From assembly GCA_000004985.1 (NCBI GenBank), contig GG738910.1: a DNA stretch of 64,000 bases; one strand, written 5' to 3'. This DNA comes from Naegleria gruberi. Lineage: Eukaryota. Below the pieces are notes generated by a model. The model was given only the letters and a program-made list of their open reading frames with translations, did no database searches and was not told the origin of the DNA. Positions 38,577 to 42,010 of this stretch are shown piece after piece. Both the position numbers and the translations under genes were made by a program. The first letter of the stretch is position 1; every line of letters begins with the position of its first letter.

Positions 38577-41500
38577 TCAATAGTATTAGTAAAGATAAGA
38601 AAAAAATTAGGAGATTCGAATAGGTATATAATTTTTGTAGGACTACACTACAAATCTAGGGTGAAAAATAGCTTTTTAGCTTGGTCAATAGAATTTTCGC
38701 TGGAGGAATGGATCCACTTGACAAATTGTCGACCGCTCTCTATGGTTTTGAGATTGTTCCAAGTTCGCTATTTTCAAAACTCTTGCAAAATTAATGTAGT
38801 GTAGTTGACAATTTGAGCAACAGGCAAAGTTGATTCATTAACAATATCTCAATCCTTGAGCTTTTAATGTGTTTGTTTTAATTAATATATATTTTATTAT
38901 TTTGTGAATTTAAAAACATGTTGTTTTCCAAAACCACTATTTTATCTCAGTAAACCTCGATAGGAACATAAATTGTTGAAAAATGATTATGATGATACAA
39001 CTGACCTTTTTTTGATTACTCATATTACACGTTTTCAAATTCAAATTCAGTCTGTAAAGTTATAAGACAACTCTGTAAAATAATTTCATTTCAATTACAG
39101 ACCACTGTTATAAAGGGTCTACTGGATTAACAATAATTGAAACCTTCTTTAATAGCTGATCCAATTCTAAAACTACGTCAATTCCATTGTGATCGGAAAT
39201 ATTATAAATCCAATTAATTATCATTTAAAAATGTTTCCTCATATTCAATCAGAATTCAACATTACAATTCTTTTTTTCTAAATAATTCTAAACAGTCAAA
39301 CACATAACGGTTATTTTATTGGGATTTTGTTTAACAATGAATATTCATTTCCTATATGAAAACTACAATAACAATACCAATTTCAAATTAAGTTATCTAA
39401 ATCAAGTATGTTGTATTCTTTTTAGCAAATTTTAATATTCTTTCATATCACTAGATCGTTTCTGATCTTCCTTTTGATCTCTAATATCATTAAGCACCTC
39501 ACTACATTCTTTATCTTTCCGTCTTATCCTTGTGGATCTTATCAGTCATGGTGTTCTTGATGGTGTTTATATTATCTGAAGTAGAAATACTGGTAGAACT
39601 AACCGAATCATCTAATTGGCTTTTGTTATATTCATGCAATGAATGAGATGATGGTGATAAAAGTGGTTCTACTGTATCATTGTCATCATCTTCATCACTT
39701 TCAGCATAAAACGTCTCTTGTACTTCTTTAAAATCAGTAGAGGTAAAGTATTAAGACAGAAACGTAGAACATTTGATCATTTCAAACACTTTCTTATCAA
39801 CTACCTTAAAGGTTGTAGATTAAATCTATTTCAGTATCAAACAAACACCGCATTAGCCTGATAACTTTAGATTAATAAGGTCTTCCTATTGTATTAAATT
39901 TTTCCTTTTTTTGTTTCTTCTTTTTGTTTGTTACATTGTAAATTAATAAAAACAAGATTGAGAATAAGTAATTATACTAATGGATATTAAAGCTCAAAGA
40001 CTGTTTCATCTTTAAGGTGATTCAGCACTGAGAACTGCTTTAACGGATATAAATCTTTATTAGCAGGTCCCGAGATTAATAAATATGGCTCTTATAAAAA
40101 AACTTATCAATAGTATTAGTAAAGATAAGAAAAAAATTAAGAGATGCGAATAGGACGGTCTAAACATAGCTCCCCAAAGCTTTACGAAAATAATAAAAGG
40201 AATTATGGTCTTTATTTACATAAACGACATCCTTTTAGTGGAAATTTGTTCAATTTGGTACTAGAAAATCTCCGAACGTTAATAACAGACTTAAAATTCC
40301 TTAGATGGCTTCTTCAAGGGAAATCAGTTCTAATTCCAACTCAAACTATTCAGTTTCTGGGCATCCTCTTCGATTTAGAAAATGGGAAAATTCTAATTCC
40401 AGAAGACAAGAAAGTAATAGCTATGGATATCATGGACAAACTAATCTTAGCAGAATCTCAAAGATCTCTGTTAAACTTAAGATTCGTCGCCAAATTCATA
40501 GGAAAAATGGAGTTCCTAGCATTAGCAGAACCAGCAATCATGTCATTCCTAGACAGATTAAGAAAGCAAATGTGTAATCGGGTGGAAATGAAAGGATGGA
40601 ATGGCATAATGATGATAAATCGTGGTCCTAGGAAAGATTTATGTTTCCTCAAAGAAATCTGGTAAGATTCTGGAACATTACATAAAACTCAGAGACAACA
40701 TGGTGTTCTTCATAGATTATAATAAAAAGAGTAACAAATTGATTAGAGACAAATGGGTTTTAGAGTCAGGTAACTGTTTCACCAAATAAGAACCTGCTTT
40801 GATTAGATAAAAATCTTTATTAGCAATAAAATGTAAAAAACTTGCTAATAGACAATGCTAAAAGCAAGAAAAAACCAAATAAAGTGAAAAAATTAAATTA
40901 AAAAATAATATCCAAAAAGACACTAAGAGTGCTTAATAAATTGCCTCGCTTAATTAATTCACTTACTAAGAAATTAATTGGCGTATAAAAAAGGCTAAAA
41001 TATTTTAAAAACTAATATGGGAGGGATAAGGTGGGACCTATCATTTCTTGCTTAGGAAGTGTCATCTTGTGACAAATTTATTATTACAGGTTTTTTATAG
41101 AGGAGTTGTTCTATTTCAATCTCGATTTTGTAAACAACTATAATGTCAATGACTTTAAAAGCAGCATTTCTGAGCAACATACAGTGTTCTTATTGAAGTT
41201 TACTGAGATAAAGTAGTGTTTTTTGAAAACAACAATTGATTGAAAAATTTTACTCTATTTGTACTGAATATACCTCTTTTCTCATTCTCATTTTGATTCT
41301 TAAGTGTCAAGACGGTTGAGTAGGTTTTTTAATTCTTAACTTTTTGGTTTTTACCGATTTTTTTTTCCTACAAGAGTAGGTTTTTTTATATGAGTTGTTT
41401 TTTCAAAAAACAACTTGGTTTATTGGTAGAACGTATTACTTAAATTTGGTTTATTGAAAGTTTGTTAATAGAATAGGTAGAAGTTGTAGTGTGAACTTTA

Positions 41501-42010
41501 TATTCATTAGTTTATTTATTGCTGACTCTGATATTGCAAATCTGTCGATAATGTGGTTCTGAATTCTTTTTCTACCATACTTATCAATTCTGGTGATGAT
41601 TTCTAATCGCTTAAACCGCTTAGTTTGTCTGTAATTTTTCTCTGAGGGAATGTAGATTACTTTTGCAATTCTCGAGCCACATTCTATTTCCAAATTTTCC
41701 TTGCTATTTGAGCGAGGTTCGAAAGTTCCATATCTTTTTCTTATGTATGAGAGCGGCAGTTGAATTGGCCCTTCCTATTTCAAGATAGAGCTTTTGTGAT
41801 CTTGCTTCTGAAGAATTGAAGAATTGCCATCATTTCTTTCGAATCGATATGATCGTTGGTGTGAGATCTTCCTATAACAACAGTGTTTGAGGAGTGGACG
41901 CCATATCCTTGAGGAGAAGCATCTGAATTGACTATAATTGGGAAAGGTTGATTTAGATATAGGAGAGAACCTTTTGAGTTTGAACTGATCTACAGTTTTT
42001 TGCACCTTAA
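38577..42010. mobile_element. degraded DIRS-like retroelement region with terminal-repeat remnants and rearranged pol fragments
   Basis: + strand 40144..40665 encodes an RT C-terminal region homologous to 16592..17200 ('FLDRLRKQM...KGWN'). Minus-strand 41451..41693 is homologous to 16314..16700 ('RLEIITRIDKYGRKRIQ' vs 'RLEIFARIDRFGRRRIR'). A 48-bp direct repeat lies at 38577..38624 and 40107..40154. An imperfect inverted repeat lies at 38921..38956 and 41189..41224. The spacer is AT-rich and non-coding. Confidence 0.55.
38921..38956. repeat. left arm of imperfect inverted repeat (partner 41189..41224), ITR-like
   Basis: The reverse complement 'ggtttactgagataaaatagtggttttggaaaacaa' matches 41189-41224 'gtttactgagataaagtagtgttttttgaaaacaa' at about 85% identity. 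Confidence 0.5.

Follow-up and report, generated by a model that had tools for sequence, protein, structure and literature searches.

In the 64-kb stretch of DNA analysed here (the window), HMG-CoA reductase and BiP are convergent genes, and the 4.3-kb gap that separates them (38.3-42.6 kb) is, in all likelihood, a transposon graveyard with a mosaic history. This gap would hold at least three separate dead DIRS1-like fragments (T, B and C) and an isolated 51-nt repeat copy (DR1), and its two repeats of about 50 nt would not be element termini. The BiP ORF in the window matches NAEGRDRAFT_83309 at 100% identity, which indicates that the DNA is from Naegleria gruberi. The gap is gene-free, and about 2.9 kb of it (38625-38918, 38969-39928, 40660-41184, 41235-41501 and 41990-42633) has no origin recognisable by comparison with the relatives, by profile HMMs or by Rfam, tRNA and tandem-repeat scans (the scans gave nothing relevant), so that the history of the gap is incomplete.

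Fragments were mapped by tblastn and with profile HMMs built from intact relatives, and the amino acid numbers given below are those of the pol or recombinase of these relatives. The relatives, intact ones from environmental assemblies among them, are L001-L005, L094 and L095, and also P0006 and P0155, with L093 as a distant relative. The gene order of the intact ones is a gag-like ORF, pol (RT, RNase H and a Dam-like domain) and then a tyrosine recombinase; the contigs of pol relatives carry the gag-like ORF, a pol with RVT_1 (E = 1.9e-23 in L001) and, overlapping by 4 bp, a Phage_integrase ORF of 302-306 aa. The Phage_integrase ORF (PF00589) lies directly after pol in L001, L002 and L095, and also in the distant L093, and in L094 the recombinase-frame ORF after pol runs off the contig end without a Pfam call. 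It can be seen in six relatives that the recombinase frame is open along nearly the whole of pol: over 439-694 codons it has 0-1 stops, as compared with 55-86 for the other frame and about 46 for shuffles. The Phage_integrase match is located at aa 743-889 of recombinase-frame ORFs of 905-907 aa; the overlap with pol amounts to about 1.8 kb, and the catalytic part lies in the non-overlapping 3' end. For the region after RNase H, PF05869 (Dam) was the only Pfam match in six of the seven members (best E = 4.5e-6), all of these matches being below the 28.1-bit cutoff and the relative P0006 above it (30.2 bits). No solved structure was matched by the profile of this domain. Its motif reads VPP(L/I) or APPI, at a position where adenine methyltransferases canonically have (D/N)PP(Y/F). 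All close related contigs end before the element termini, and ITRs are visible only in the distant L093, which has 106-nt perfect ITRs and repeats 31 nt of its right end immediately behind the recombinase gene. A post-recombinase motif, TTAATTAATCTCGGAACCT/TACCCATTAGTATAA, is conserved in the family.

In the window, frameshifted fragments of RT, RNase H and downstream pol lie in mixed orientation at three places (10.07-10.26, 16.18-17.74 and 40.16-41.99 kb), with a nucleotide identity of 74-80% between copies. This agrees with the preliminary description, which had reported mutually homologous, frameshifted fragments in three regions; the four motifs quoted there are all present, and the RNase H-type motifs align as DAS...FEIRGDN...ADRLSR. 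The most complete copy, A (16178-17737, minus strand), occupies the gap between two convergent genes, a discoidin-domain ORF and a GT10 fucosyltransferase. It consists of pol aa 61-211 (17734-17281, minus), pol aa 330-631 with thumb, RNase H and the Dam-like domain carrying VPEWPTSHWFP (17245-16386, minus), and tyrosine-recombinase aa 27-97 (16390-16178, minus); about 118 codons are deleted between pol aa 211 and 330, and there are several frame changes. The recombinase remnant is 66% identical to L001 (HMM E = 3e-28). When the stitched copy was analysed, RVT_1 was detected by Pfam at E = 8.8e-6, and as a query it retrieved pol proteins 57-58% identical. Near 10 kb there are two tiny RNase H pieces, corresponding to L005 nt 2110-2205 (10158-10065, minus) and nt 2036-2097 (10188-10249, plus; mapped also as 10188-10256), which are neighbours in the element and have opposite orientations in the window. 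By their homology, copy A and the 10-kb scraps are assigned as further remnants of the same family. A profile HMM search of the entire 64 kb revealed no further gag, pol or recombinase remnants. Other genomic copies are indicated by four N. gruberi "predicted proteins" on other scaffolds, which represent gag of the same family as the window fragments.

Because copy A keeps a recombinase remnant and the relatives have a gag/pol/tyrosine recombinase architecture, the window fragments are classified from their sequence as debris of DIRS-order (tyrosine-recombinase) retroelements, as had been proposed before. The same two lines of evidence refute the idea that they are debris of a conventional Ty3/gypsy LTR retrotransposon, to which we attach almost no probability. 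In favour of that idea, the RT and RNase H of DIRS elements are related to those of Ty3/gypsy (PMC3266345), and some distant matches carry RT_RNaseH domains typical of gypsy pol. However, in the close relatives a tyrosine recombinase follows pol immediately; no DDE integrase is listed for any relative, there is no protease signal, and no long LTR-like direct repeats surround the window fragments. Best matches to Ty3/gypsy pol with an integrase, named in the preliminary description as the outcome that would refute a DIRS-like identity, are thus not what the relatives show. Ngaro and VIPER likewise belong to the tyrosine-recombinase retroelements and have gag, RT/RNase H and recombinase in this order, but they are without a methyltransferase domain and usually show no ORF overlap (PMC3266345), whereas the present family has a Dam-like region and a very long overlap. 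The PAT-like elements (PAT, TOC, kangaroo) have split direct repeats at their ends and a recombinase that is sometimes inverted; here the recombinase is co-oriented, and the only direct repeat in the window (51 nt) lies inside a 3'-end fragment and not at an element end, the family termini being outside the contigs. The closest likeness is to the DIRS1-like superfamily, whose type element is DIRS-1 of Dictyostelium discoideum (PMC3266345), with which the relatives share the gag-like ORF, a pol that contains RT, RNase H and a putative Dam-type methyltransferase-like domain, and a recombinase in the same orientation after pol in a frame overlapping it. DIRS1-like elements also have ITRs and internal complementary regions (ICRs); contigs of the relatives stop short of the termini. 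Differences are that the Dam-like domain of the family is mostly under the Pfam threshold and that the window copies are fragments only; the clustering of these copies resembles the seven degenerate DIRS1-like copies, found clustered together, that were reported for N. gruberi (Piednoel et al. 2011, PMC3266345).

Two pol pieces lie in the HMG-CoA reductase/BiP gap. B (40157-40659, plus) covers pol aa 218-395, from the RT motif GLxxAP through thumb and connection, and an open 173-aa ORF lies there (40144-40665); its defects are one frameshift, a deletion of 9 aa and a change of YIDD to YIND, by which a catalytic Asp is lost. C (41989-41502, minus) covers pol aa 395-567, i.e. RNase H and the beginning of the Dam-like domain, with four in-frame stops and one frameshift, and its homology breaks off sharply at either end. 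The identity of B to L005 is 69.5% in amino acids and 72% in nucleotides, but to L004 it is 51% in amino acids. In contrast, C is 87.7% identical to L004 over 506 nt (90% in amino acids over the first 60 residues) and 50% identical to L005 in amino acids. Since L004 and L005 are themselves about 52% identical, uniformly in the regions of both B and C, these values place the two pieces in different subfamilies, B with L005 and L095 and C with L004. The end of B and the start of C are the same ATC codon (aa 395), and the 3' edge of C is within about 12 nt of a deletion junction in L005 (about aa 567-570). By our rough estimate, independent fragments would share one codon about 1% of the time.

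Fragment T (39929-40154, minus) corresponds to part of the 3' end of a DIRS1-like element and shows 84% identity with the L005 tail. In L095, L001 and L002 it aligns with the region of the stop codon and 3' UTR, and in L005 and P0155 with the tails. Its order is a segment "X" of about 70 nt, the conserved motif TTAATTAATCTCGGGACCT (in relatives this includes the stop codon of the recombinase), an insertion of 78 nt, then TATCCATTAGTATAA and CAATGTAACA. The first 51 nt of X (DR2, 40104-40154, minus) recur in isolation as DR1 (38574-38624, minus), with 94% identity and with flanks unrelated to T. This is the feature that had been described as 48-bp direct repeats at 38577 and 40107. The pair is unique: a 32-nt core was matched twice, where 100 shuffles gave an expectation of 0.00. 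The position of the 51-nt repeat is upstream of the stop-codon motif and not at an element end, which identifies it, on present alignments, as part of a minus-strand 3'-end fragment and not as a terminal feature. A reading of T as an inverted terminal repeat was rejected because L095, L001 and L002 place T at and beyond the stop codon of the recombinase. The 51-nt repeat was also rejected as a target-site duplication produced by an insertion of 1.5 kb, since native T sequence lies left of DR2 and not left of DR1. T is upstream and direct beside B and downstream and inverted in L005 and P0155, and the junctions between T-type and coding sequence differ among the window, L005 and P0155. When a 16-mer from T was searched against JGI metagenomes, the 87 matches were all due to chance and none had extended homology.

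The second repeat is inverted, with a left arm at 38919-38968 that begins with the small palindrome TGTTGTTTTCCAAAACCAC and a right arm at 41185-41234. The arms are 50 nt long, 88% complementary and 2216 nt apart; they form a unique pair (two core matches, 0.00 expected by shuffling). Gapped local alignment lengthened neither this repeat nor the 51-nt one, so both have sharp edges; with 88-94% identity, as compared with about 75% for the coding fragments, both are also younger. The inverted repeat said to bracket 38.9-41.2 kb is real, but its interpretation as an ITR was not supported: the arms have no counterpart in the seven related contigs (L001-L005, L094 and L095), and they enclose only T and the truncated pol piece B, with C outside. 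Thus the sole inverted repeat around the window fragments does not bracket one element. With no target-site duplication found at its flanks, terminal inverted repeats of a DNA transposon were also rejected. An alignment of the L002 tail with 38964-39128 was gappy and AT-rich only and was taken as spurious.

For the mosaic history that we prefer, the parent elements would have carried gag, pol (RT, RNase H and Dam-like domain) and a tyrosine recombinase, as the relatives show. On the published DIRS1 model, their mobility would have relied on reverse transcription to circular DNA, which the recombinase integrates without target-site duplication. Separate insertions or captures would then have been followed by deletions and small local rearrangements, of which the two repeats of about 50 nt would be by-products. 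The codon shared by B and C, the closeness of the 3' edge of C to the L005 deletion junction, and the sharp edges and younger age of the two repeats count against this history. None of the fragments can still move: a start, the full set of domains and termini are absent from every one. A single copy split by one inversion of 40660-41989 into B and C, with the 50-nt arms as formerly flanking direct repeats (LTR-like or split), would account for their meeting at codon 395 in opposite orientation, re-inversion restoring contiguity. It would also account for one arm lying inside the inverted segment and the other outside, and the 10-kb scraps show the same local-inversion geometry. However, the subfamilies differ right up to the junction (against L004, 51% for B and 90% for C in amino acids), so that this model needs a recombinant parent with its crossover at the later inversion breakpoint; in addition, the stretch from the left arm to B contains neither gag nor a pol N-terminus. 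It was dropped as the main model once L004 and L005 put B and C in different subfamilies, and we regard it as very unlikely.

It is highly improbable that the 50-nt inverted repeat represents a DIRS1-type cis element (outer left ITR plus ICR), with the 51-nt repeat as another of ITR/ICR type. Short copies of ITR ends (about 30-90 nt) do occur inside DIRS1-like elements (PMC3266345), the ITRs and right-end repeat of L093 provide a precedent, and the edges of both window repeats are sharp. Against this, the arms match none of the close relatives and are unlike the conserved post-recombinase motif, which is the place expected for an ICR. They are not part of any longer inverted repeat, what they enclose is not a single element (T and B being head to head), and the 51-nt repeat lies upstream of the stop-codon motif. 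Nested insertion of DIRS elements into one another at preferred pol target sites, followed by deletions, seems unlikely as the cause of the shared breakpoints. The breakpoints at aa 395 (B and C) and about aa 567-570 (C and L005) do coincide or lie close together, and two or more subfamilies are represented by neighbouring fragments. Dictyostelium DIRS-1 prefers insertion into other DIRS-1 copies. In the DIRS model, the integration site is a short sequence that is the same as the circle junction, and no target-site duplication arises (PMC3266345). But the sequences at the breakpoints (from 40660 and from 41990 onward) are unlike each other, T or any relative, and the differing T-type junctions fit deletions better than precise insertion. 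More than one element contributed, in keeping with the broader idea of nesting in the preliminary description. We consider it quite unlikely that the breakpoints at codon 395 and about 567-570, the inverted 10-kb scraps and the sharp 50-nt repeats all reflect one recurrent process, namely recombinase acting at pseudo-sites or template switching by RT or a repair polymerase, with TTAATTAATCTCGGAACCT/TACCCATTAGTATAA as a circle-junction or recombination site.

DIRS debris in N. gruberi has been known since 2011 and is ordinary, and DIRS elements make up 0.32% of the N. lovaniensis genome (PMC6125883); the consequence for biology at large is small. The proposal that the elements helped to assemble the glyco-gene blocks was not borne out, since the paralogues are homologous in coding sequence only, and their homology does not stop at the fragments. 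What is added is the documented location of dead DIRS-type copies in gaps between gene 3' ends, together with positive evidence, missing in 2011, for true tyrosine-recombinase elements with intact relatives. This bears on the question of a true occurrence of the DIRS1-like superfamily outside unikonts, which Piednoel et al. left open in the case of Excavata (PMC3266345). For annotation, N. gruberi "predicted proteins" such as NAEGRDRAFT_54940 can be flagged as transposon gag. With regard to the glyco-genes, it was also noted that the neighbours of the 38.3-42.6 kb gap are HMG-CoA reductase and BiP.

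The window is eukaryotic in character and gene-dense (about 34% G+C), and its BiP-like ORF (42634-44637) matches NAEGRDRAFT_83309 of Naegleria gruberi at 100% identity. The region flagged in the preliminary description as DIRS-like debris occupies a gap of 4.3 kb separating two convergent genes, of which the HMG-CoA reductase gene ends at 38307 and the BiP gene at 42634. Retroelement remnants were placed by tblastn and by profile HMMs built from relatives. Copy A (16178-17737, minus strand) comprises pol residues 61-211 and 330-631, with about 118 codons missing between them, followed by recombinase residues 27-97. 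Piece B (40157-40659, plus strand) carries pol residues 218-395, with YIDD changed to YIND, and piece C (41989-41502, minus strand) carries pol residues 395-567, with four stops and one frameshift. At 10065-10256 lie two scraps of RNase H (94 and 62 nt, spaced 29 nt apart) that adjoin each other in the element but have opposite orientations here; they fall within a 322-nt gap upstream of an ORF at 10362. Neither gag nor any further pol or recombinase remnant outside these pieces was found by profile HMM in the whole window. The protein motifs quoted originally were all recovered by six-frame translation.

A conceptual protein stitched from copy A was used as the query, and 57-58% identical proteins with lengths of 596-668 aa were obtained in environmental and SRA assemblies. 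Four related contigs (L001, L002, L094 and L095) have three ORFs in the order gag-like, RVT_1 pol and an ORF of 302-306 aa, the last of which overlaps pol by 4 bp and matches Phage_integrase in L001, L002 and L095. In addition, the recombinase frame is open over almost the entire pol, with 0-1 stops per 439-694 codons in six relatives, compared with 55-86 stops in the third frame and about 46 in shuffled sequence; the opening spans 1004-3721 in L001, 1258-3981 in L002, 1109-3058 in L003 and 1065-3419 in L004. This conserved overlapping ORF is about 900 aa long, and no known domain falls within its N-terminal 600 aa. The VPEWPTSHWFP motif sits in the post-RNase H region, where the sole family matched is Dam methyltransferase PF05869, under the Pfam cutoff in 6 of 7 members and over it in a 41%-identical relative. 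The canonical motif of adenine methyltransferases is (D/N)PP(Y/F/W); at that position the family alignment has YC(V/A)PP(L/I)G (window 16400-16560, minus strand). This Dam-like domain has 54 invariant columns across 7 sequences and, judging from its residues, may be catalytically dead though strongly conserved.

DIRS1-like elements encode a pol with RT, RNase H and methyltransferase-like domains, a co-oriented recombinase and a long overlap between the two (Piednoel et al. 2011, PMC3266345). The pol, co-oriented recombinase and long overlap of the relatives are among these listed features, whereas Ngaro and VIPER have no methyltransferase domain and usually no overlap (PMC3266345). Since copy A keeps part of the recombinase, a recombinase remnant is positively present, which goes beyond the mere lack of an integrase. 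The DIRS-type identity is supported by this remnant and by the Phage_integrase ORF and pol/recombinase overlap of the relatives.

The direct repeat reported earlier exists, with a length of 51 nt (38574-38624, DR1, and 40104-40154, DR2) and 94% identity; it is one unique pair in 64 kb, where zero matches are expected, and gapped alignment did not lengthen it. Left of B, a stretch of 183 nt (39972-40154) that includes DR2 matches the tail of contig L005 in reversed orientation at 84% identity, and the C-terminal tail of the related protein P0155 is a translated form of the sequence found there. On its minus strand, the window aligns with L095, L001 and L002 at their 3' ends. All of them contain TTAATTAATCTCGGRACYT, in which the recombinase stop codon lies, followed by TAYCCATTAGTATAA (L095 2695-2779; L001 3700-3759; L002 3960-4010; window 39929-40075, minus strand), and CAATGTAACA is shared with the window by L095 and partly by L002; it is not seen in L001 because that contig stops short of the position. 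Therefore, the segment from 40154 down to 39929, named T, is a 3'-end fragment of an element on the minus strand, and its junction with B is head to head. A variant of T with a 78-nt insertion between TTAATTAATCTCGGRACYT and TAYCCATTAGTATAA and a segment of about 70 nt, X, upstream of both is common to the window, L005 and P0155. The first 51 nt of X constitute DR2, and DR1 is a lone second copy with unrelated flanks. In all three the insertion splits the motif exactly between its halves. This non-coding motif at the recombinase stop, a possible cis-acting site, is conserved between subfamilies whose proteins share only about 50-70% identity.

Contigs L095 and L005 are 96% identical until L005 switches to the T-type tail; L095 instead goes on to encode the Dam-like domain and recombinase, which indicates that L005 is a deletion derivative. 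Two such internal deletions were seen, in L005 (2390-2556; pol nt 2390 joined to the T variant) and in P0155 (mid-gag joined to the T variant), and their junctions differ in position.

The end of B (40659/40660) and the start of C (41989/41990) fall within one shared ATC codon, a coincidence with a chance of roughly 1% by our estimate, and this gave rise to the idea of one copy split by inversion of 40660-41989. Comparison of L004 and L005 undercuts it. C is 87.7% identical to L004 in nucleotides, and 90% in protein over its first 60 residues, whereas B is 51% identical in protein to L004 and about 70% to L005. Because L004 and L005 are about 48% divergent in the B and C regions alike, B (L005-like) and C (L004-like) belong to different subfamilies all the way to the junction. 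The protein identity of B to relatives (about 70%) is close to its nucleotide identity (72%), which suggests that divergence took place mostly under selection in an unsampled subfamily, not after insertion. B contains an uninterrupted ORF of 173 aa (40144-40665), absent in its exact form from the protein collection. Breakpoints also coincide closely at the other side of C, whose 3' edge (41502-41516) lies about 12 nt or less from the L005 deletion junction (L005 2390).

The inverted repeat is likewise real (50 nt, 38919-38968 and 41185-41234, 88% complementary, one unique pair in 64 kb with zero matches expected). Its reading as an ITR is not supported: none of the related contigs carries a homologue, no target-site duplication flanks it, and its arms enclose T and B, leaving C outside. 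Moreover, it does not resemble the conserved 3' motif, and gapped alignment gave neither an extension nor a longer companion repeat. DIRS1-type termini are exemplified, for comparison, by L093, a metagenomic contig and distant relative (31% pol identity) that appears to be a near-complete DIRS1-type element: its ITRs are 106 nt long and perfect (1-106 and 4811-4916), and a 31-nt repeat of the right end occurs at 4617-4647 and 4907-4937, the internal copy directly past the recombinase gene.

According to the DIRS1 model (PMC3266345), the parent elements would have passed through reverse transcription, circular DNA and recombinase-mediated integration without target-site duplication; the pieces in the window are incapable of such replication. 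They form a patchwork of internal fragments with sharp edges, adjoining segments of opposite orientation and copied patches of about 50 nt younger than the coding fragments. This would fit repeated insertion or capture, then deletion and small template-switch/repair rearrangements, in a selectively free gap.

It had also been proposed that the elements helped to assemble the glyco-gene blocks, and no evidence for this was found in the window: homology among glyco-gene paralogues does not extend beyond the coding regions, nor does it stop at element fragments, and copy A does no more than border one fucosyltransferase gene at its 3' end. The neighbourhood (15596-24333 and 45080-54109) has a fucosylation flavour, with four GT10 fucosyltransferase paralogues (17830-19650, 19777-21447, 48442-50199 and 52631-54109), a divergent pair of GT18-like genes (21498-22883 and 22933-24333), a GDP-mannose pyrophosphorylase (45080-46078), a GDP-sugar epimerase/reductase-like gene (46887-47894) and a discoidin (F5/8 type C) domain ORF (15596-16084).

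For N. gruberi, Piednoel et al. 2011 (PMC3266345) reported seven DIRS1-like copies, assigned to 6 families, whose damage precluded phylogeny and whose support came from similarity only; 89 DIRS copies are listed for N. lovaniensis (PMC6125883). Four 'predicted proteins' encoded elsewhere in N. gruberi, on other scaffolds (P0152, P0153 (NAEGRDRAFT_54940), P0154 and P0156), are gag of the same family, with 42-59% identity to that of L005, and represent transposon genes annotated as host genes. Given these reports and proteins, the finding in the window is correctly recognised debris of a known kind. Modest additions are the intact relatives with recombinase, the long ORF overlap and the conserved 3' motif, and further the two-subfamily mosaic and the true nature of the direct repeat.

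Some short repeats were also observed in the gap. Both arms of the inverted repeat have the palindromic TGTTGTTTTC(N)AAAAMMAC as their outer end (38919-38937 and 41217-41234), a third occurrence of this motif lies at 41394-41414, and a 56-nt spaced repeat, GAGTAGGTTTTTT(T)AT, is found at 41318 and 41374. To the right of DR1 (38643-38803) lies a short palindromic pair, ACTACACTACA and TGTAGTGTAGT, about 150 nt apart, which may be due to chance.
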